64,000 bases of DNA, taken from a virus (lineage: Duplodnaviria; Heunggongvirae; Uroviricota; Caudoviricetes). The position numbers were made by a program, and so were the translations under genes. Positions 3,214 to 49,366 of this stretch are shown piece by piece. Each line of letters opens with the position of its first letter. Position 1 is the first letter of the stretch. Below the pieces are notes generated by a model, which did no database searches, was not told where the DNA came from, and saw only the letters and a program-made list of their open reading frames with translations. The stretch covers positions 1 to 64,000 of IMG/VR virus record IMGVR_UViG_2713896909_000009. The stretch is one strand, 5' to 3'.

Positions 3214-3247
3214 ATTGCTCTAATAAATTTGATTTATTAGAGCAAAT
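3214..3247. promoter_or_regulatory. bipartite C1 operator (two overlapping 17-mers in inverted orientation)
   Basis: 'attgctctaataaatttgatttattagagcaaat': a perfect ATTGCTCTAATAAATTT plus an inverted partner. Confidence 0.7.
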
Positions 3248-3546
3248 AACCTACCATCGAACACGGCTCTATTGATCTCATCGTCGTTCAGGCTTATAGT
3301 TCCACCGTCGTAGCAAATTCTGCGACCAGGTTTGACAGCCTGAATACGAATGCGGACAACCGCAGATTTCCGATATTGCGGTATTTTTGTGTCCGTAAAC
3401 CACGTTACGCCCGAATTATGGTGGGGCGTGATGGGGAGGCTTCGGCCTGCTGGTTTCATTCGTGCCAGTCTGTCAACCCTGTCACGTCCTGCCACCTGTT
3501 TGACAGCGGGTCGCAGGTTGTTAAACCTACGAATGAGGCCGTAACT

Positions 3547-3768
3547 ATGGTTAATGCCAATCCTTGCGCACGCCCTGAATTTATCTGGCGCTTTTACTCC
3601 TGCCAGAAACGTCACTATCACTTAGTAATTGCACCGACAGAAGATGAGGCCCGCTCTCAGCTTCCTGACGCTCCCTGCATTTTCTCTGCCCGCTTTTCCA
3701 CTGATTCGCGCAACTCTCTCAGTTACTGGTGCCTCCCTGTTAACGCTTCTGCTCAGGAGGGGCTATGA
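3547..3768 (+). CDS. small ORF translationally coupled to the antirepressor-like gene (icd-like position)
   Basis: 73 aa 'MVNANPCARPEFIWRFYSCQKRHYH...'; stop overlaps the next ATG (ATGA); conserved in all three cassettes. Confidence 0.5.
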   Translation: MVNANPCARPEFIWRFYSCQKRHYHLVIAPTEDEARSQLPDAPCIFSARFSTDSRNSLSYWCLPVNASAQEGL

Positions 3769-4856
3769 GAACGTCATTAGTCACCCGTGAAGAAATGATT
3801 GAGGCAATTGAACAGCACACATCCTGTATCAGTACCAGGGATATACCGGGTGTTATTGCCAACTACTTCATGATCACCAAACAACTTTACCGGAGAAAGG
3901 ACAAGAACGCGGTTCACCGCATTCTGTTGTCTGATATCCGTGAATACCTGCTCGAACAGGGTCGTCTTGATTATGCAACCGTAACCGCCGAAGCACGCAA
4001 GGAGGCACACAGGATGAAAGCAACTAATGTTAAATCAGAAAAAATTACCCTGCCTTCAGTTCAGGAATCCGAGCTGGTGGTTGTTCAGAATCAGTCTGAT
4101 GAAATTCCCGTTCTGGAATGGCTGGGAGTGCGTGTCGTAACGACCGAAACTCTTGCTAGAGGGTATGGTACCGATGAAGCCAATATTCGTAAAAATTTGT
4201 CTCGCAACTCCGATCGCTTTGAAGAAGGCAAGCATTACTATCTCTTAACCGGTTCAAAGTTAAAGGAATTTAAAAGGCTAGTGACTATTAGTCACTTGGT
4301 TAGCAAATATACAAGTCAGGTAATTCTCTGGACAGAGCGCGGCGCTGCACGCATGTCTAAGATCGTGGACACAAATGAAGCATGGGCATTCTTTGAAAAA
4401 CTGGAAGACAGCTACTTCCGACAAAAAGAACAGCAACCGGTCTCAATTCCCCAGACGCTTCCAGAAGCTCTGCGCCTGGCTGCCGAGTTGGCAGAACAGA
4501 AAATGCAACTGGAACAACAGCTGGTGGCCGCCGCTCCTAAAGTCGATTTTGCCGACCGGGTATCAGTAGCTAAAGGGATCCTGATTGGGAATTTTGCAAA
4601 GGTTGTTGGACTTAAGCAAAACGCGCTGTTTGCCTGGTTACGGGAGAACGGCATCCTGATTGCGTCCGGCGGACGTAAAAATGTACCGTTTCAGCAGTAC
4701 ATAAATGCCGGGTATTTCACGGTGAAAGAAGTGGTGCTGGATGATGAAGATGGCTACCAGATACGGTTGACGCCCCAGCTAACGGGGAAAGGCCAGCAGT
4801 GGCTGACGCGTAAACTGCTCGATGCAGGTTTATTAAAGCCTGTAGCGGCTGAGTGA
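3765..4856 (+). CDS. antirepressor-like protein (ORF6N/Bro-N-like central domain, KilA-C/ORF6C-like C-terminus), paralog 1
   Basis: 363 aa; 'VLEWLGVRVVTTETLARGYG' and C-terminal 'PKVDFADRVSVAKGILIGNFAKVVGLKQNALFAWLRENGILIASGGRKNVPFQQYINAGYFTVKEV'. Confidence 0.7.
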   Translation: MRTSLVTREEMIEAIEQHTSCISTRDIPGVIANYFMITKQLYRRKDKNAVHRILLSDIREYLLEQGRLDYATVTAEARKEAHRMKATNVKSEKITLPSVQESELVVVQNQSDEIPVLEWLGVRVVTTETLARGYGTDEANIRKNLSRNSDRFEEGKHYYLLTGSKLKEFKRLVTISHLVSKYTSQVILWTERGAARMSKIVDTNEAWAFFEKLEDSYFRQKEQQPVSIPQTLPEALRLAAELAEQKMQLEQQLVAAAPKVDFADRVSVAKGILIGNFAKVVGLKQNALFAWLRENGILIASGGRKNVPFQQYINAGYFTVKEVVLDDEDGYQIRLTPQLTGKGQQWLTRKLLDAGLLKPVAAE

Positions 4857-16697: not shown

Positions 16698-16730
16698 ATT
16701 GCTCTAATAAATTTGATTTATTGGATCAAA
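16698..16730. promoter_or_regulatory. C1 operator (perfect 17-mer plus degenerate inverted partner)
   Basis: 'attgctctaataaatttgatttattggatcaa'. Confidence 0.6.
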
Positions 16731-17031
16731 AATACTACCATTGAACGCCAGAGTATTGATCTTCCTGTTGTTCAGGCTTATAGTTCCGCCGTCGTAGCAA
16801 ATTCTGCGACCGGGTTTGACAGCCTGAATGTACATGCGGGCAACCGCAGATATCCGATATTGCGGTATTTTTGTGTCCGTAAAACCACGTTACGCCCGAA
16901 TTATGGTGGGGCGTGATGGGGAGGCTTCGGCCTGCTGGTTTCATGTACGCCAGTCTGTCAACCCCGTCACGTCCTGCCACCTGTTTGACAGCGGGTAGCA
17001 GGTTGTTAAACCTGTACATGAGGCCGTAACT

Positions 17032-17256
17032 ATGGTTAATGCCAATCCTTGCGCACGCCCTGAATTTATCTGGCGCTTTTACTCCTGCCAGAAACGCCAC
17101 TATCACTTCGTTATTGCACCGACAGAAGCTGAGGCACGTTCTCAGCTTCCTGACGCCCCCTGTATTTTCTCCGCCCGTTTTTCTACCGATTCGTCGCGCA
17201 ATTCTCTCAGTTACTGGTGCCTCCCTGTTAACGCTTCTGCTCAGGAGGGAGTATGA
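17032..17256 (+). CDS. small ORF coupled to antirepressor-like paralog 2 (icd-like position)
   Basis: 74 aa 'MVNANPCARPEFIWRFYSCQKRHYHFV...'; ATGA overlap with the next gene. Confidence 0.5.
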   Translation: MVNANPCARPEFIWRFYSCQKRHYHFVIAPTEAEARSQLPDAPCIFSARFSTDSSRNSLSYWCLPVNASAQEGV

Positions 17257-18365
17257 GAACGTCATTAGTCACCCGTGAAGAGATGATCGAGGCAATTGAA
17301 CAGCACACAACCTGTATCAGTACCAGGGATATTCCGGGCGTTATTGCCAACTACTTCATGATCACCAAACAACTTTACCGGAGAAAGGACAAGAACGCGG
17401 TTCACCGTATCCTGCTGTCTGATATCCGCGAATACCTGCTCGAACAGGGGCATCTGAATTACGCAACCGTTGCAGCCGAAACACGCAAGGAGGCACACAG
17501 AATGAAAGCTACTAACGTTAAATCCGAAAAAATTCATGCACCTTCAGTTCAGGTATCGGAGCTGGTGGTTGTTCAGAATCAGTCTGATGAAATTCCCGTT
17601 CTGGAATGGCAGGGAGTGCGTGTCGTAACGACCGAAACTCTTGCTAAGGGGTATGGAACCGAAACTAATAACATCAAAGTTAACTATACGCGTAATGCTG
17701 ATCGCTTTGAGGAAGGTAAACATTACTTTCTACTAACTGGTTCAAAATTAAGAGAATTGAAGGACAAGGTTACTCAAAGTAACTTAGTCGCACCGCGAGC
17801 AAAGCACCTCACTCTCTGGACGGAACGCGGCGCAGCCCGCCACGCTAAAATGCTCGAAACCGATCAGGCATGGGCATTCTTTGAAAAACTGGAAGACAGC
17901 TACTTCCGGCAAAAAGAACAGCAACCGGTTGCAATCCCCCAAACATTACCAGAAGCCCTACGCCTGGCTGCCGAACTGGCTGAACAAAAGCAGCTTCTGG
18001 AACAGAAAGCCCACCAGCTAAATCAGCAGCTGGTGGCCGCAGCCCCCAAAGTCGATTTTGCCGACCGGGTATCAGTAGCTAAAGGGATCCTGATTGGGAA
18101 TTTTGCAAAGGTTGTTGGACTTAAGCAAAACGCGCTGTTTGCCTGGTTACGGGAGAACGGCATCCTGATTGCGTCCGGTGGACGTAAAAATGTGCCGTTC
18201 CAGCAGTACATAAACGCCGGATATTTCACAGTGAAAGAAGTGGTGCTGGATGATGAAGATGGCTACCAGATACGGCTGACGCCCCAGCTAACTGGGAAAG
18301 GCCAACAGTGGTTGACGCGTAAACTGCTCGAAGCTGGCTTGTTAAAACCGGTGGCGGCTGAATGA
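17253..18365 (+). CDS. antirepressor-like protein, paralog 2
   Basis: 370 aa; N- and C-terminal thirds near-identical to paralog 1, central domain diverged. Confidence 0.7.
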   Translation: MRTSLVTREEMIEAIEQHTTCISTRDIPGVIANYFMITKQLYRRKDKNAVHRILLSDIREYLLEQGHLNYATVAAETRKEAHRMKATNVKSEKIHAPSVQVSELVVVQNQSDEIPVLEWQGVRVVTTETLAKGYGTETNNIKVNYTRNADRFEEGKHYFLLTGSKLRELKDKVTQSNLVAPRAKHLTLWTERGAARHAKMLETDQAWAFFEKLEDSYFRQKEQQPVAIPQTLPEALRLAAELAEQKQLLEQKAHQLNQQLVAAAPKVDFADRVSVAKGILIGNFAKVVGLKQNALFAWLRENGILIASGGRKNVPFQQYINAGYFTVKEVVLDDEDGYQIRLTPQLTGKGQQWLTRKLLEAGLLKPVAAE

Positions 18366-18970: not shown

Positions 18971-20002
18971 CTAATCACCATCTTCCAGCAGGCGCACCAT
19001 TGCCCCCGTTTCACTATCCAGATTACGGATATAGTTCATGACAATATTTACGTTGGTCCAGCCACCAGCTTGCATGATCTCCGGTATTGAAACTCCGGCG
19101 CGGGCCATATCTCGCGCGGCTCCGACACGGGCACTGTGTCCAGACCAGGCCAGGTACCTCTGGCCAGAGTCATCCTTAGCCCCGTAAATCAATCGGTGAA
19201 TTGCTTCAAAAATCCCTTCCAGGGCGCGAGTTGATAGCTGGCTGGTGGATGATGGCGCGGCAACACCATTTTTTCTGACCCGGCAAAACAGGTAGTTATT
19301 CGGATCATCAGCTACACCAGAGACAGAAATCCATCGCTCGACCAGTTTAGTTACCCCCAGGCTAAGTGCCTTCTCTACACCTGCGGTGCTAACCAGCGTT
19401 TTCGTTCTGCCAATATGGATTAACATTCTCCCACCGTCAGTACGTGAGATATCTTTAACCCTGATCCTGGCAATTTCGGCTATACGTAACAGGGTGTTAT
19501 AAGCAATTCCCAGAAATGCCAGATTCCGTATATCCTGGCAGCGATCGCTATTTTCCATGAGTGAACGAACCTGGTCGAAATCAGTGCGTTCGAACGCCAA
19601 TGCCTGTTTTGCACGTTCACCGGCATCAACGTTTTCTTTTCGGATCCGTCGCATGACCAGTGAAACAGCATTGCTGTCACTTGGTCGTGGCAGCCCAGAC
19701 CGACGATGAAGCATGTTTAGCTGGCCCAAATGTTGCTGGATAGTTTTTACTGCCAGACCACGCGCCTGAAGATATAGAAGGTAATCGCGAACATCTTCAG
19801 GTTCTGCGGGAAACCATTTCCGGTTATTCAACTTGCACCATGCCGCCCACGACCGGCAAACGGACAGAAGCATTTTCCAGGTATGCTCAGAAAACGCCTG
19901 GCGATCCCTGAACATATCCATCAGGTTCTTGCGAACCTCATCACTCGTTGCATCGACCGGCAATGCAGGCAAATTTTGGTGTACGGTCATTAAATTGGAC
20001 AT
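18971..20002 (-). CDS. cre: Cre site-specific tyrosine recombinase
   Basis: 343 aa 'MSNLMTVHQNLPALPVDATSDEVRKNLMDMFRDRQAFSEHTWK...'; essentially the Cre sequence; adjacent loxP. Confidence 0.97.
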   Translation of the reverse strand: MSNLMTVHQNLPALPVDATSDEVRKNLMDMFRDRQAFSEHTWKMLLSVCRSWAAWCKLNNRKWFPAEPEDVRDYLLYLQARGLAVKTIQQHLGQLNMLHRRSGLPRPSDSNAVSLVMRRIRKENVDAGERAKQALAFERTDFDQVRSLMENSDRCQDIRNLAFLGIAYNTLLRIAEIARIRVKDISRTDGGRMLIHIGRTKTLVSTAGVEKALSLGVTKLVERWISVSGVADDPNNYLFCRVRKNGVAAPSSTSQLSTRALEGIFEAIHRLIYGAKDDSGQRYLAWSGHSARVGAARDMARAGVSIPEIMQAGGWTNVNIVMNYIRNLDSETGAMVRLLEDGD

Positions 20003-20835: not shown

Positions 20836-21045
20836 ATGGCTTTCATTCAACCAACCATCGACGACGTTAGACATTGCTCTAACGCTTTATCTGTAGACCC
20901 TGCCGAAACCGACGCAGCCCGCGCCATTGCTGAACACTACTCAAAGATATCCAATCAGGAGTACCGCATCACCCAAGACGACCTGGATGACCTCACTGAC
21001 ACAATCGAATATCTCATGGCAACTAACCAGTTAGACTCACAATAA
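20836..21045 (+). CDS. coi: Coi (C1 inactivator)
   Basis: 69-aa ORF immediately upstream of c1. Confidence 0.8.
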   Translation: MAFIQPTIDDVRHCSNALSVDPAETDAARAIAEHYSKISNQEYRITQDDLDDLTDTIEYLMATNQLDSQ

Positions 21046-22007: not shown

Positions 22008-22039
22008 ATTATGCCCGGCATCAACCGGGCATTCTTCCA

Positions 22040-23155
22040 TTATTCAGCCGCCACCGGTTTTAACAAGCCAGCATCAAGTAGCTTGCGAGTTAACCACTGC
22101 TGGCCTTTACCCGTTAATTGAGGCGTCAACCGTATCTGGTAGCCATCTTCATCATCCAGCACCACTTCTTTCACCGTGAAATACCCCGCGGTGATGTACT
22201 GCTGGAACGGCACATTTTTACGTCCGCCGGACGCAATCAGGATGCCGTTCTCCCGTAACCAGGCAAACAGCGCGTTTTGCTTAAGTCCAACAACCTTTGC
22301 AAAATTCCCAATCAGGATCCCTTTAGCTACTGATACCCGGTCGGCAAAATCGACCTTAGGAGCGGCGGCCACCAGCTGCTGATTTAGCTGGTGGGCTTTC
22401 TGTTCCAGAAGCTGCTTTTGTTCAGCCAGTTCGGCAGCCAGACGCAGGGCTTCTGGAAGCGTCTGGGGGATTGTGACCGGTTGCTGTTCTTTTTGTCGGA
22501 AGTAGCTGTCTTCCAGTTTTTCAAAGAATGCCCATGCCTGATCGGTTTCGAGCATTTTAGCGTGACGGGCAGCGCCGCGTTCTGTCCAGAGAGTGAGTGA
22601 GCGGGCTTTGGGTGAGACTGGATTTTGTGAGTAGTTTAAAGCTACCCGCAAATTTTTCAGCTCATCGCCAATAACCTTGAAAAAGTGCTTCCCTTCAACA
22701 AAGCGCACTTTGTTCTCATGATGATTCTGGCGAATACGGATTGTTTCTGTCCCATACCCTTTAGCAAGAGTCTCGGTTGTCACTACACGCACCCCCTGCC
22801 ACTCCAGAACGGGAATTTCATCAGGCTGATTTTGAGCAACCACCAGCTCCGATTCCTGAACTGAAGTTGCATGAATTTTTTCTGATTTAACGTTAGTTGC
22901 TTTCATTCTGTGTGCCTCCTTGCGTGCTTCGGCTGCGATGGTTGCGTAATTCAGATGCCCCTGTTCGAGCAGGTATTCGCGGATATCAGACAACAGGATA
23001 CGGTGAACCGCGTTCTTGTCCTTTCTCCGGTAAAGTTGTTTGGTGATCATGAAGTAGTTGGCAATAACGCCCGGTATATCCCTGGTACTGATACAGGCAG
23101 TGTGCTGTTCAATTGCCTCGATCATCTCTTCACGGGTGACTAATGACGTTCTCAT
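22040..23155 (-). CDS. antirepressor-like protein, paralog 3
   Basis: 371 aa; conserved N/C termini; central domain diverged ('TETIRIRQNHHENKVRFVEGKHFFKVIG'). Confidence 0.7.
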   Translation of the reverse strand: MRTSLVTREEMIEAIEQHTACISTRDIPGVIANYFMITKQLYRRKDKNAVHRILLSDIREYLLEQGHLNYATIAAEARKEAHRMKATNVKSEKIHATSVQESELVVAQNQPDEIPVLEWQGVRVVTTETLAKGYGTETIRIRQNHHENKVRFVEGKHFFKVIGDELKNLRVALNYSQNPVSPKARSLTLWTERGAARHAKMLETDQAWAFFEKLEDSYFRQKEQQPVTIPQTLPEALRLAAELAEQKQLLEQKAHQLNQQLVAAAPKVDFADRVSVAKGILIGNFAKVVGLKQNALFAWLRENGILIASGGRKNVPFQQYITAGYFTVKEVVLDDEDGYQIRLTPQLTGKGQQWLTRKLLDAGLLKPVAAE

Positions 23156-23373
23156 AGCCCCTCCTGAGCCGAAGCGTTAACAGGGAGGCACCAGTAACTG
23201 AGAGAATTGCGTGAATCAGTGGAAAAACGGGCAGAGAAAATACATGGGGCGTCAGGAAGCTGAGAGCGGGCCTCATCTTCTGTTGTTGCGATAACGAAGT
23301 GATAGTGACGTTTCTGGCAGGAGTAAAAGCGCCAGATAAATTCAGGGTGAGTTGGGGTAGGGATAGTAGCCAT
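23152..23373 (-). CDS. small ORF coupled to antirepressor-like paralog 3 (icd-like position)
   Basis: 73 aa 'MATIPTPTHPEFIWRFYSCQKRHYHFVIATTEDEARSQLPDAPCIF...'; ATGA overlap. Confidence 0.5.
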   Translation of the reverse strand: MATIPTPTHPEFIWRFYSCQKRHYHFVIATTEDEARSQLPDAPCIFSARFSTDSRNSLSYWCLPVNASAQEGL

Positions 23374-23557
23374 AATGGCAGCCTCCTTTTGCTAACTTAA
23401 GGAGCTACCGCGTGAGGTTCCAATCTCAATGGCGGTAGCACTGACTGGGTTGGAACTACCGGCGCAAAAGGGAACCGGCCTGCCTTTCGGCAGCCCAGCC
23501 AGCACTACCATTGATCTCGGAGCTATGTGCTACGTATGGCTGTGCGATGGCATGACA

Positions 23558-23579
23558 CAAAAAAAGACGCTTTTGGCGT
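23558..23579 (-). terminator. intrinsic terminator inside the cassette-3 leader
   Basis: plus strand 'aaaaaaa gacgc ttttg gcgtc'; in minus sense a hairpin followed by T7. Confidence 0.45.
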
Positions 23580-23712
23580 CTGTGTCGCCTTTTGCATTAT
23601 CCGGGGTTCCAATCCCGGCACCCGTTTTAATGAGGTGCCTGATAAGCATAAACCGAAAATGCCTCAAGGCGCAAGAGGTCAGGTTCAATGTAACATCGGT
23701 AGTCAAAAAACA

Positions 23713-23729
23713 CAATTTATTAGAGCAAG
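23713..23729. promoter_or_regulatory. C1 operator-like site abutting the pacB stop
   Basis: 'caatttattagagcaag' (reverse complement CTTGCTCTAATAAATTG). Confidence 0.55.
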
Positions 23730-23732
23730 TTT

Positions 23733-25217
23733 TTACTCATTAAGCCATGCCAGAGCTTCATCAACCTGCGCTTCGTCTTCAACGCTAAGCACTTCATCCT
23801 GGGGAACATAGTTCGCCAACATAGCGAAACAATATGTATCCCAATGGTCCGGTGAGTGCAGGTTGAGTTTTTTCTTCATGTCTTCCTTTGACATCACCTT
23901 CCATTGACCTGCGGAATTTATCCCTACCGGTATCTTTGATGCTTCCTCTATAGTCGCAGCCCCCTTATCAAGCCGCATACGCCCTGATTTTACAGCTTCT
24001 GCCGCTTGAATATTCGCGAAAGCGCGCATATCGAAATAAAGGCTTTTATCTTCACGGCTGTGCATCTTTTTACCCCAGCGGATACGCTGGACGGTAATAC
24101 CATAGCGTTCGTACATCAGATCAGCCGTCGATTTCCCCAAGCCATCGCCATCAATAGCTATGGTGATATTGGAGAATCGCTCAGGATTACATTCTGCGAA
24201 AATTTTGGCGGCAAGCTGCGTTTCTGTAACGTCTGTGTATTCCAGCATTCGATAGTTGATTACACGGCGTTTATTTCTCTGGCCGGACACCATCATGATA
24301 TTGATAACGGACTTATCCCGTCCCGTACCACCAGCAACGTCCACACATGCAAGCCAGCCCCATCCTTTGGCAATCTTGACTTTCCGCCGCGTTGCACGTT
24401 CAACCTCATCACGTCCAAGAAGGAAGCCATCCTGTGATTTAGGGAATAGGCCGCGTACCTTAATCATGTACATAGGGTTATCACGCCCGCCGTACTCCGC
24501 CAGCTTCATTTTGATAAATGCTGGCGTTACCAGCGGTGATTCCTCACTGTTAAGCGTAATCGCCGTATAAACGCCATCAGGATTACCATGACGCTTGGCC
24601 AGTTTATGGTGAGTATCGTAGAAATAGCCGCTTGGGCGTGTAGGCTGTGACAGCAATAAGATGCGGTTATCCTGTCCGGTAAGAGCACCGGTGATGATAC
24701 CGAAAGCTCTATCACTGACACCGGAGGCTTCATCGATAATATACAGAAGATGATCTGCGTGTTCACCTGCGAGAGCTTCTTCACTTCCCAGACGAAAGCC
24801 CTTCGGTACTACAGTCCATACACCTTTACCAGTAACCTCATAGAAAGCGGTTTCTGTCAGAACAAAATAATCAGCAAGCCATGGAAAACGGCTGGTGGCC
24901 GTAGCCCAGTTTATCTTGATGTACTTGAATATACCGGTCATTACCTGCTGAATTTTGTTCGCAACGATAATGGCACGGGCACCGGGATACATGATTATGA
25001 ACAACATGATCATGATAGAAGTCATGTCTGATTTCCCGGTACCGTGGCCAGACGAAACAGATGTCTTGCTACCCTGTTCCTGCACAGACTCAATAATCAG
25101 ATCCTGCTGCCAGGTAGGTGTTTTGCCGAACAAAACATCAGCGGCCGCAATCCAGTCATAACGATATAGCGCCACCAGCTCGCGCCAACGTGGATCCGTT
25201 ACGCAACTTCTGGCCAT
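23733..25217 (-). CDS. pacB: terminase large subunit
   Basis: 494 aa; Walker A-like 'GHGTGKSD'; directly downstream of pacA. Confidence 0.85.
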
Positions 25218-26410
25218 TAATCATCATCCCCGTATAGCTTGCGGGTAACTTCTTCGTCTTCCTCCTCGTCTTCGTCCAGGTCTTGTTCCAGCCATGGTTC
25301 GTTTGATACACCTTCAGCATCAACATCTCCATAACCGCCTGTATCAACGATATCGGCGATTTCTTCCCTACGTTGCTCAATCCACAATGCAGCATCGGCG
25401 CGGCGGTTGGCGGCTCGTTCTCGCGCAACTTTGTCCAGATCTTCAAGAGAAGGGCCACCGACGGCTGTTTGCCTTTCCTCATCATCGGTATTGGTCTTAG
25501 GAGCACGCAGATCGGCTTTGATTTGCTCCAGCATCAGGGGCGGCACTTTCCCGCCATGCGCCTCGATGAATTCAGCTGCTTCCAGCACTGACCAGTTATT
25601 TTCACGCTTTCGTTCGTATGCCAGCTTAACAATGCCAGCTTGCCCCATAGACAAAGCGTGCTTTTCCGCCTCCCGGCTTTCTTTTCGATAGTTATTCCGG
25701 ATGCTGTAAATGGTGTTGATCAGACTGCTTATCTGCGCGGAACAGCTGTTTAGCATGCTCGCGATACGGTATTCAGGCGGAGTACCTTCATCATCGTCTT
25801 TTTGCTGATCGCGCATTTCCTGCACCAGGCGAATACACGTATCCCTGGCGTTCTCCAGCATAAGGAGATGAGAAAGAGACTTTTCAAGAAGAGTGGTTTC
25901 CAGAACATCGGCCCCGGACCGACGCAACATAGCGCGCGCGGCCTTCCGCGCTTCAACGTTATCGATCAGGTAATCGCCAGCTTCGAATTCAAAGCGTTCA
26001 CCATCATCATCCAGGGTGTCGCGTTCCAGGCGATCACGTAAGGTCCGGTGGGCGCGGGTGATCACGTCATGATCATCTGAACGATCATTTATGCGCTTAT
26101 TTTGGCGCTTCGCATTCTCGACTGCGGCATTGATAACGGCATTAACTCTCTGTTTTTCCGCTATTTCAGCCGCAATATGATCACCTGCATGTTGATCATT
26201 AGAGTGATCAATGATCATGCTTTTTAGTGGCTTCCTGACTGGCTTATTTGGCTTGCGGCTGTCCGCAGTCCTGGTGTCTTCTTTGAAGGCACGGAGATAA
26301 CGACGTGCGGTATTAGGGTTAAGATTAAACTCGGCGGCATACTGTGCGATGGTGTAACCACCATCTCGCGCCAGGCGAGCAAAATTCTTCTTGTGATCGT
26401 CCCAGGTCAC
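25217..26410 (-). CDS. pacA: terminase small subunit (pac recognition)
   Basis: 397 aa; acidic C-terminus; contains the hexamer pac site. Confidence 0.85.
26059..26217. other. pac: pac packaging site (clustered TGATCA/CGATCA hexamers with Dam GATC)
   Basis: three hexamers at 26059-26087 and four at 26178-26217, inside the 5' part of pacA. Confidence 0.7.
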
Positions 26411-46980: not shown

Positions 46981-47056
46981 TGGTGGCCCCTACCGGACTC
47001 GAACCGGTGACCGTGCGATTATGAGTCGCCAGCTCTAACCACTGAGCTAAAGGGCC
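46981..47056 (-). tRNA. tRNA-Ile2-like (anticodon CAT, ileX-type)
   Basis: 76 nt 'GGCCCTTTAGCTCAGTGGTTAGAGCTGGCGACTCATAATCGCACGGTCACCGGTTCGAGTCCGGTAGGGGCCACCA'; near-identical framework to E. coli ileX; CCA encoded. Confidence 0.8.
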
Positions 47057-47765: not shown

Positions 47766-48054
47766 TGGTTATCCCTCAATAAAAGTGACATATTTATTAG
47801 ATTGCGGTGCCGGGTGCCTCCCGGTGACGTTAACCAGTTAACAATTAACGCCGGAATGTTTAATCATCAAGGAGGATTGTTTTAACTGTTCCGCGTGCGC
47901 TTAGCCGCATTCACCACAACGGAAAGAGCATTTATGGCTCGCATCGCGGGAAAAAGCCCACGGTAGAGAGTCGAACTCTACAAATACTCTTACCTGTTGT
48001 GTGCTCCGTTTCGTGGAGCTAACGGCGGAGTAATCATCCGCCTCAAATTTATAA

Positions 48055-49290: not shown

Positions 49291-49366
49291 TGGCGATGGT
49301 GGGTGGATTCGAACCACCGACCAGTTAGTTAACAGCCAACTGCTCTAACCGCTGAGCTACACCATC
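49291..49366 (-). tRNA. tRNA-Asn (anticodon GTT)
   Basis: 76 nt 'GATGGTGTAGCTCAGCGGTTAGAGCAGTTGGCTGTTAACTAACTGGTCGGTGGTTCGAATCCACCCACCATCGCCA'; canonical cloverleaf. Confidence 0.8.

Follow-up and report, generated by a model that had tools for sequence, protein, structure and literature searches.

Organization of the cassette 3 leader

This work concerns a 64,000-nucleotide (nt) window of viral DNA (Caudoviricetes; IMG/VR record IMGVR_UViG_2713896909_000009, positions 1 to 64,000), which is a P1-like plasmid prophage with three antirepressor cassettes, and in particular the leader of the third of these (cassette 3), where a hairpin followed by a run of seven T residues lies on the minus strand. 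All coordinates within cassette 3 refer to this strand unless stated otherwise. The coding part of the cassette consists of two overlapping open reading frames (ORFs). The first (23152-23373, 73 amino acids [aa]) is an icd-like ORF whose product is 74% identical to P1 Icd and whose homolog is labelled 'Icd-like' in RefSeq; the start at 23373 given in the initial annotation agrees with the ORF list. Its stop codon overlaps the start codon of the antirepressor gene, ant, within an ATGA sequence (23155-23152). The latter gene (22040-23155) encodes a protein of 371 aa with ORF6N and ANT/KilAC domains (Pfam E values of 2.9e-20 and 1.5e-31) that shares 62% identity with P1 Ant1.

The hairpin with its T run had been placed at about 23558-23579, which is right to within 1 to 2 nt, as gacgccaaaagcgtc spans 23580-23566 and the seven T residues come next, at 23565-23559. 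The corresponding entry of the terminator scan is AGACGCCAAAAGCGTCT at 23581-23565, with six pairs (four of them G-C), a loop of 5 nt and the tail TTTTTTTGTG. The complete element, AGACGC-CAAAA-GCGUCU plus U7 (23559-23581), is supported by the sequence, the terminator scan and its conservation in homologs, and it is a genuine motif of an intrinsic terminator within the leader of the operon formed by the small ORF and the antirepressor gene, as had been proposed. Its predicted fold (-7.6 kcal/mol) equals in strength that of the experimentally studied IsrK terminator of Gifsy-1 from Salmonella (-7.5 kcal/mol).

An Rfam scan of the whole window showed that this hairpin is the 3′ hairpin of a full-length match to the small RNA (sRNA) family isrK (RF01394; 23560-23638; 62.4 bits, with a gathering score of 50; E value of 5.7e-11; model positions 1-77 aligned out of 77). 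The IsrK-like RNA consists of hairpin 1, hairpin 2 with a site named a1 in its loop, a single-stranded linker carrying a second site, b1, and the terminator hairpin with its U run. The hairpins appear in the minimum free energy fold, which has a z-score of -2.1. A chance hairpin is ruled out by the E value of the isrK covariance model in the 64-kb window and by the conservation described below.

The IsrK-like RNA precedes ant and a C4 antisense RNA, the latter beginning 45 nt downstream (RF01695; 23428-23515; a full-length match of 76.7 bits, with a gathering score of 45) and folding into the family structure at -46.4 kcal/mol. Two stretches of exact complementarity, of 7 and 8 nt, connect the two RNAs. 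Site a1 (TTGGAAC, 23606-23612), which occupies the hairpin 2 loop of the IsrK-like RNA, is perfectly complementary to C4 nt 60-66 (GUUCCAA), which lie in the single-stranded junction of C4 (a′, 23456-23450), and b1 (GCAAAAGG, 23588-23595), in the IsrK linker, is the exact complement of C4 nt 45-52 (CCUUUUGC), which form the loop of its second internal hairpin (b′, 23471-23464). Both target sites recur downstream of C4. Site a2 (TTGGAAC, 23417-23423) lies 5 nt past the C4 match, at the position that corresponds to a2 of P1, and b2 (GCAAAAGG, 23385-23392) overlaps the Shine-Dalgarno sequence of the icd-like ORF (AAGGAGG), 12 nt before its ATG. The transcript had initially been described as antisense, but no gene lies opposite and it carries the a1 and b1 copies of the C4 target sites, so the IsrK-like RNA would be a target mimic, or decoy, for C4 instead of an antisense RNA.

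Predicted promoters and transcripts

Two promoters can be predicted upstream of the IsrK-like RNA. The proximal one (23645-23674) comprises a -35 hexamer TTGCGC (23674-23669), an 18-nt spacer and a -10 hexamer TATGCT (23650-23645), with the predicted +1, a G at 23638, following after 6 nt. Among 13 sequences of the cassette 3 type, two upstream contexts occur, one between pacB and c1 and one of the D6 type, and both keep TTGCGC, the 18-nt spacer length, TATGCT or TATATT, the 6-nt distance and the G at IsrK nt 1; the spacer sequence itself diverges. The geometry of PisrK of Gifsy-1 matches (TTGACA, 18 nt, TATATT, 6 nt, A), and the proximal -10 aligns with that of the P1 promoter P1c4/P51b inside the c4-a1b1 model of Rfam. 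The predicted distal promoter (23687-23715) has a -35 hexamer TTGTGT (23715-23710), a 17-nt spacer and an extended -10 TGtTACATT (23692-23687). Its geometry matches P1 P2c4/P51a, where the -35 likewise overlaps the end of the operator, and it is conserved in the pacB-c1 context only. Since a consensus promoter scan listed no site in the leader, both assignments rest on conservation and analogy.

The operator in question is a C1-repressor operator-like site, CTTGCTCTAATAAATTG, at 23713-23729, only 4 nt past the pacB stop codon. It has two mismatches to the P1 C1 consensus, which bears out its earlier assignment, and it is conserved in all homologs in the pacB-c1 context. The window holds 18 such sites against 0.39 expected by chance. 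By analogy with P1, C1 is predicted to bind here and would control the distal promoter.

The initial annotation envisaged an antisense sRNA, about 140 nt long, whose transcription would begin at an operator-proximal promoter under C1 control. A promoter overlapping the operator is plausible, being conserved in the pacB-c1 context, and upon C1 inactivation a 5′-extended isoform could appear from a start near 23680, giving an RNA of about 122 nt up to the U run, not 140 nt. As the source of the main product, however, a start at 23638 is favored, because homology to IsrK and to the lambdoid and D6 copies begins exactly at 23638-23642 and a conserved predicted promoter lies directly upstream; the main product is thus predicted to be an RNA of about 80 nt that extends from 23638 to 23559-23565. 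Together with the lack of a gene on the opposite strand, this makes the 140-nt antisense RNA very improbable.

Conservation of the terminator and covariation of the target sites

We compared homologs retrieved from IMG/VR with a search pattern built on IsrK hairpin 2, in which the variable part of a1 was left free, yielding 120 loci and 105 distinct extracts. The triple formed by a1, the C4 junction and a2 was kept in 70 of the 105 distinct homologs, with seven different a1 heptamers, compared with 29 of 9160 (0.3%) in a mismatched-partner control in which each a1 was paired with the body of a locus having a different a1. An exact triple of b1, C4 loop and b2 (at least 6 nt) was present in 55 of these 70 homologs, and more than 30 combinations of a and b were found. 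In most homologs b2 ends 7-13 nt ahead of a start codon. The covariation of these triples against the control shows that the three-way pairing is under selection. Within the cassette 3 family, the a variants TTGGAAC and TTGAGAC and the b variants GCAAAAGG and GTCAAAGG occur in all four combinations (carriers include RCS47 and D6), which suggests that the two specificity sites may reassort independently.

The terminator is maintained along with the sites. A run of at least five T residues stands just after b1 in 69 of the 70 homologs, and a hairpin directly adjoins the U run in 41 of 44 distinct homologous segments, with 12 different stem sequences and a median energy of -7.8 kcal/mol. Since the T run, the hairpin and the covariation of its stem are kept across homologs, the terminator is a selected and integral part of the unit. 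These figures were scored per sequence, anchored on the U run, in place of RNAalifold; the latter, applied to 32 IsrK homologs aligned with MAFFT, found hairpins 1 and 2 and missed the terminator because stems of unequal length had been misaligned. Hairpin 1 also covaries, with 15, 7, 4 and 19 double changes at its pairs.

A further helix, formed by GACAC (23586-23582) and GUGUC (23558-23554), brackets the terminator and loops out the U run (23554-23586). Of 49 distinct homologs, 92% have it with 5 bp or more, compared with 26% when the flanks were shuffled as a control, and its stem occurs in many covarying sequences. It is also found in P1-type leaders (in cassette 1, about 3351-3357 with 3390-3396). 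As its 3′ strand lies beyond the Rfam isrK model, this lower helix would be confined to read-through RNA, where it may play a part in processing or stability.

Relation to cassettes 1 and 2

The other two cassettes lie on the plus strand (cassette 1, 3214-4856; cassette 2, 16698-18365), and each consists of an operator, a leader, C4 and icd-ant. Rfam calls c4-a1b1 and C4 in both leaders, so that all three cassettes contain C4. Between the cassettes, Icd is 85-96% identical and Ant 84-90%; the Icd of cassette 3 is 85-86% and its Ant 84-90% identical to those of cassettes 1 and 2. By blastn, the similarity of cassette 3 to the other two is confined to the interval from 23347, which is 26 nt inside icd, to 22039, with none detected upstream of 23347. 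The earlier observation that the coding parts are conserved while the leader differs is therefore correct at the nucleotide level.

The leader had also been called unrelated to those of cassettes 1 and 2, which holds for nucleotide similarity but not for architecture, which is common to all three, and the models cross-align. The isrK model aligns at full length to the cassette 1 leader (3307-3388; 44.1 bits, E value of 1.8e-8, just under the threshold), and the alignment includes a hairpin, AACCGCAG and GCGGU separated by 12 nt, followed by AUUUUU. Conversely, the c4-a1b1 model aligns to cassette 3 (23.1 bits, E value of 0.0011), and it overlaps the 5′ part of IsrK of Gifsy-1. As the isrK and c4-a1b1 models cross-align and both hit one Gifsy-1 RNA, IsrK corresponds to the a1/b1 element plus a terminator, and the IsrK-like RNA of cassette 3 is equivalent in structure and position to the a1/b1 element in the P1 immI leader; the isrK model describes the a1/b1 element of cassette 3 better than c4-a1b1 does. 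The terminator is stronger in cassette 3 and not unique to it, since P1-type leaders have a weaker version, with a hairpin of -8.5 kcal/mol, a 12-nt loop and only U5. Cassette 3 is a mosaic in which an RNA leader of the D6/lambdoid type is joined to icd-ant of the P1 type.

IsrK-like stretches of the P1 type were found at 3307-3388, at about 16791-16873 in cassette 2, at about 331-412 of the P1 immI record and in P7, each with a hairpin at the terminator position and AUUUUUGUGU. No terminator is annotated at this position in the curated P1 record. P1 itself may produce an unrecognized short a1/b1 (IsrK-like) RNA from the weaker hairpin.

Cassettes 1 and 2 and P1 immI are 91% identical to one another, and their coordinated differences are restricted to three places, namely b1, the C4 loop and b2. 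The three cassettes thus have three C4 specificities (a/b): TTGACAG/ACGAATG in cassette 1, TTGACAG/GTACATG in cassette 2 and TTGGAAC/GCAAAAGG in cassette 3. The b sites of cassettes 1 and 2 also differ from those of P1 (GTTAGTG) and P7 (GATTGTG). Local duplex energies of the cassette 3 C4 with its cognate targets were -28.9 and -32.2 kcal/mol, and the targets in cassettes 1 and 2 gave -13.7 to -21.5 kcal/mol; because these energies favor the cognate partners, cassette 3 should be orthogonal to the other two.

The 5′ end of the cassette 3 C4 (UCAAUGGUAGU, 23514-23504) has an 11-nt exact complementarity to the promoter-region leader of cassette 2 (ACTACCATTGA, 16734-16744), and a 7-nt version is found in cassette 1 (3251-3257). 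This may be coincidence or reflect a shared ancestry of the promoter regions. Cassette 2 is located where P1 has res-mod, as reported for pSvP1 (PMC6906374).

Comparison with Gifsy-1, P1, D6, lambdoid phages and P4

The closest experimentally studied counterpart of the IsrK-like RNA is the isrK-orf45(STnc1160)-anrP locus of Gifsy-1 (Hershko-Shalev et al. 2016, PMC4825925). There, IsrK accumulates as a stable sRNA whose binding to Hfq is known from experiments, and some isrK transcripts continue past the terminator, giving an orf45-anrP mRNA that is not translated. When the short IsrK is provided in trans, translation of anrP increases more than 100-fold, an activity lost in IsrK point mutants, and the compensatory pairs G28-C162 and G31-C159 prove that IsrK pairs with the downstream RNA (PMC4825925). 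Because the homologous locus behaves in this way, a discrete sRNA together with read-through into the operon, as the initial annotation had it, is the most likely outcome at cassette 3 as well.

Both loci have the same Rfam short-RNA family, the three-hairpin shape, a terminator of equal strength, the same promoter geometry, a C4-family RNA directly downstream, a and b sites duplicated before the start codon of the antirepressor, and the antirepressor as the regulated gene. The orf45/STnc1160 region of Gifsy-1 is itself a full-length C4-family RNA (34076-34329, minus strand; 69 bits), and when the two compensatory pairs were mapped here they fell onto a1 (UUGGCGU) and the C4 junction (ACGCCAA) of Gifsy-1. 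Its b2 copy, AUCACCGGAGGG, overlaps the anrP Shine-Dalgarno sequence. A mechanism in the style of P1, in which C4 blocks the ribosome-binding site and IsrK titrates C4, is therefore offered as an alternative reading of the published Gifsy-1 data. The loci also differ: in cassette 3 an icd-like ORF separates C4 from ant, and b2 lies on the Shine-Dalgarno sequence of this ORF; the antirepressor of cassette 3 is a 371-aa ORF6N and KilAC protein, compared with the 187-aa AnrP; cassette 3 has an upstream C1 operator-like site and a second predicted promoter, with no antQ or isrJ nearby; and its sites are TTGGAAC/GCAAAAGG, as against UUGGCG/UCACCG.

In P1, RNase P cleaves the precursor to release C4, which serves in trans as an immunity factor, pairing with a2 and b2 to block the translation of icd and, through coupling, the expression of ant. 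The order of every element in cassette 3 is that of P1 and P7 immI (Oc4, P51a/P51b, a1 b1, c4, a2 b2, icd, ant1/2), and the spacings of a1, b1, c4, a2 and b2 are nearly the same as in curated P1 immI. The operator-like site is placed like Oc4, its end overlaps the predicted distal -35, two promoters are predicted, the spacing of a2 and b2 and the ATGA overlap of icd and ant agree, and Icd and Ant are of the P1 type. In contrast to P1 immI, cassette 3 has no nucleotide similarity to it upstream of icd codon 9, its a1/b1 element reaches the isrK threshold and not that of c4-a1b1, its terminator is canonical (5-nt loop, U7) where the P1 type has a 12-nt-loop hairpin and AUUUUU, and it lies between pacB and c1 where P1 immI lies beside sim/kilA. 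As in P1, P7 and cassettes 1 and 2, specificity is altered by coordinated substitutions at three places; such differences in b1, the C4 loop and b2 are known to underlie the heteroimmunity of P1 and P7 (PMC6906374).

The leader shares 90% identity with D6 immI between 23682 and the icd start, a stretch that contains the predicted proximal promoter, IsrK, the terminator and C4. The a and b sites appear reassorted between them, as D6 has TTGAGAC with GCAAAAGG where the window has TTGGAAC with GCAAAAGG. Stx phages share 67-72% identity starting exactly at the IsrK 5′ end, and Stx and other lambdoid phages (e.g., phiP27) carry the pair of isrK and C4, with both non-coding RNAs annotated in LC710661. 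Unlike cassette 3, D6 and the Stx/lambdoid phages have an upstream control region without the P1 C1 operator, and their downstream antirepressor genes differ.

The immunity region of P4 (CI RNA; seqA, seqB, seqC) is a further related system. Its CI RNA is homologous to C4, as seen from a blastn match to the P4 ash/CI region, target copies lie both upstream and downstream of the RNA, and IsrK was termed a structural homolog of P4 seqA by the Gifsy-1 authors (PMC4825925). In contrast to the translational control of an antirepressor, the outcome in P4 is premature transcription termination of the replication operon.

The P4 case bears on the possibility that the cassette 3 element is a purely cis-acting leader or attenuator, in which, for example, C4 pairing to a1/b1 modulates termination and the terminated fragment has no function in trans. 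The analogous P4 sites, contacted by CI RNA at seqA and seqC, do act in transcription termination (PMC4825925), P1-type leaders have a1/b1 with a weak terminator-like hairpin only, and the conserved lower helix that bridges the U run forms in read-through RNA only. We nevertheless consider this unlikely, as the short IsrK of Gifsy-1 is a stable sRNA whose more than 100-fold effect on anrP is exerted in trans and is lost in IsrK point mutants (PMC4825925), and the strong canonical terminator of cassette 3 predicts an abundant short product.

Proposed regulation of the antirepressor

Taken together, these results make it likely that 22008-23732 is a third immI-type module and that the hairpin with T7 forms the Rho-independent terminator for an RNA of the IsrK family, about 80 nt long, which acts as a decoy for the C4 RNA over icd-ant. 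Transcripts would start at the constitutive proximal promoter and, without C1, also at the distal promoter overlapping the operator. Most of them would stop at the terminator and give the short RNA, while read-through transcripts would carry C4, then a2 and b2, the latter on the icd Shine-Dalgarno sequence, and then icd-ant. C4 would pair with a2/b2 and block the translation of icd, and because icd and ant are coupled, this would also block antirepressor synthesis. The short IsrK-like RNA would compete for the same C4 sequences and so relieve the block. The terminator would set the ratio of decoy to C4 and mRNA, and C1 would add a second layer of control through the distal promoter. Two of these steps, C4 repression via a2/b2 in P1 and IsrK trans-activation of antirepressor translation in Gifsy-1, are taken from published work on the homologs, and the transcript ends, the read-through and the direction of regulation at cassette 3 are proposed by analogy with them.

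Several observations weigh against this model. The predicted promoter hexamers are weak, with matches at 3 of 6 positions for the -35 and 4 of 6 for the -10, and the consensus scan found no sigma-70 site in the cassette 3 leader. The c4-a1b1 model (RF03163) scores only 23.1 bits on cassette 3 (E value of 0.0011), below its threshold of 46.7. Energy gains from full-length RNAcofold were small, at -1 to -5 kcal/mol, and failed to distinguish cognate from non-cognate pairs of C4 and target, which local duplex energies and exact complementarity did; the program cannot model loop-loop kissing. The downstream logic of Gifsy-1, which has no icd gene, is not identical to that of cassette 3, and the Gifsy-1 authors explain activation by orf45 translation and a structural switch, not by titration of C4 (PMC4825925).

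If the decoy model is correct, a wider role can be imagined. The short IsrK-type RNA could be a diffusible anti-immunity RNA that titrates any C4 of matching two-site code, whether its own or that of a (co-)resident prophage, the three orthogonal locks forming a combinatorial RNA system with a and b sites that reassort independently between phages; we put this forward tentatively and regard it as doubtful. It would imply a wider superinfection immunity for the plasmid, and the plasmid or an incoming relative would be able to trigger antirepressor synthesis in a prophage sharing the code.

The hairpin and T run thus belong to a recognizable regulatory module that is already known, and they do not represent an element of a new kind. 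The families of these RNAs, the occurrence of the two in tandem (LC710661; isrK and C4 were noted to co-occur in APSE phages, PMC7313666), the analogy of IsrK to seqA (PMC4825925) and the ant insertion (PMC6906374) are already public. In the literature searched we found no description of the pacB-c1 cassette at the RNA level, of a genome in which three orthogonal modules co-exist or of the lower helix, and no explicit statement that IsrK is equivalent to a1/b1 plus a terminator with large-scale covariation. This equivalence joins three literatures, those on P1 a1/b1-c4, P4 seqA-CI and Salmonella IsrK, with the IsrK-P4 link already hinted at (PMC4825925). The extra 'ant' insertion between pacB and c1 is, on this evidence, a complete RNA-controlled immunity module, and control of the antirepressor decides the dormancy of P1-like phage-plasmids, which often carry resistance genes. 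We see the value of these findings in annotation and the design of experiments; they reveal no new principle.

The pacB-c1 insertion and its surroundings

The genes around cassette 3 are those of P1, with a Cre-like recombinase (18971-20002, minus strand), Coi (20836-21045, plus strand) and C1 (21156-22007, plus strand) on one side and PacB (23733-25217, minus strand) and PacA (25217-26410, minus strand) on the other. As the stop codons of pacB and c1 are only 24 bp apart in P1 itself, 22008-23732 is an insertion relative to P1. The same insertion was found in phages RCS47, JL22 and vB_EcoM-673R5 and in 321 plasmid records, each covering at least 80% of the query, and the closest relatives of the cassette 3 stretch are P1-like plasmids of E. 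albertii, at about 95-96% identity. Venturini et al. described the ant insertion in P1-like plasmids, including RCS47, at the gene level only (PMC6906374). Of 5426 complete E. coli genomes, 449 (about 8%) carry the IsrK-like element, with nothing annotated under it in RefSeq.

This position raises the question of whether the hairpin might simply terminate the pacA-pacB late operon and shield the antirepressor cassette from it, with no functional small RNA involved. No other terminator-like site lies between the hairpin and pacB, whose stop codon is about 150 nt upstream, and because no terminator is annotated in the 24-bp pacB-c1 gap of P1 proper, an ant operon inserted in the same orientation would need insulation. 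The hairpin and U run are, however, kept away from pacB in D6 immI, in Stx and other lambdoid phages and in Gifsy-1, and the hairpin always stands directly after b1 as part of the isrK covariance-model match. Insulation from pacAB transcription could be an additional benefit here, yet it cannot be the reason the element exists, and we find an insulator without a functional RNA highly unlikely compared with the terminator of a decoy RNA.

The leader also contains a candidate 39-aa ORF of the 'Ash family' (23392-23511), which overlaps C4 (Pfam Phage_ASH, E value of 1.3e-7; annotated by PGAP as 'ash family protein') and is the counterpart of Gifsy-1 orf45. It begins at the conserved AUGG of C4 and coincides with the C4 RNA gene, and the Phage_ASH protein family may largely reflect RNA conservation. 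Among 60 homologs, the orf45/Ash-like frame reaches the downstream start in 39, against 31 and 17 for the other two frames. Protein-coding readings of the leader were rejected, as the plus-strand ORFs at 23429-23743 and 23527-23811 and a 61-aa ORF on the minus strand overlap the structured RNAs and none is supported.

At the other end of the insertion, a perfect 9-bp terminator-like palindrome, ATGCCCGG-TTGA-CCGGGCAT (22011-22032), was identified by the terminator scan between the convergent ant and c1 genes, whose stop codons lie at 22040-22042 and 22007, respectively. This palindrome may act as a bidirectional terminator that arose through the insertion. Elsewhere in the window, the minus strand carries two tRNA genes (46984-47056 and 49294-49366) and a match to the STnc100 sRNA family (47803-47918) that is barely at threshold, with 47.3 bits against 47.

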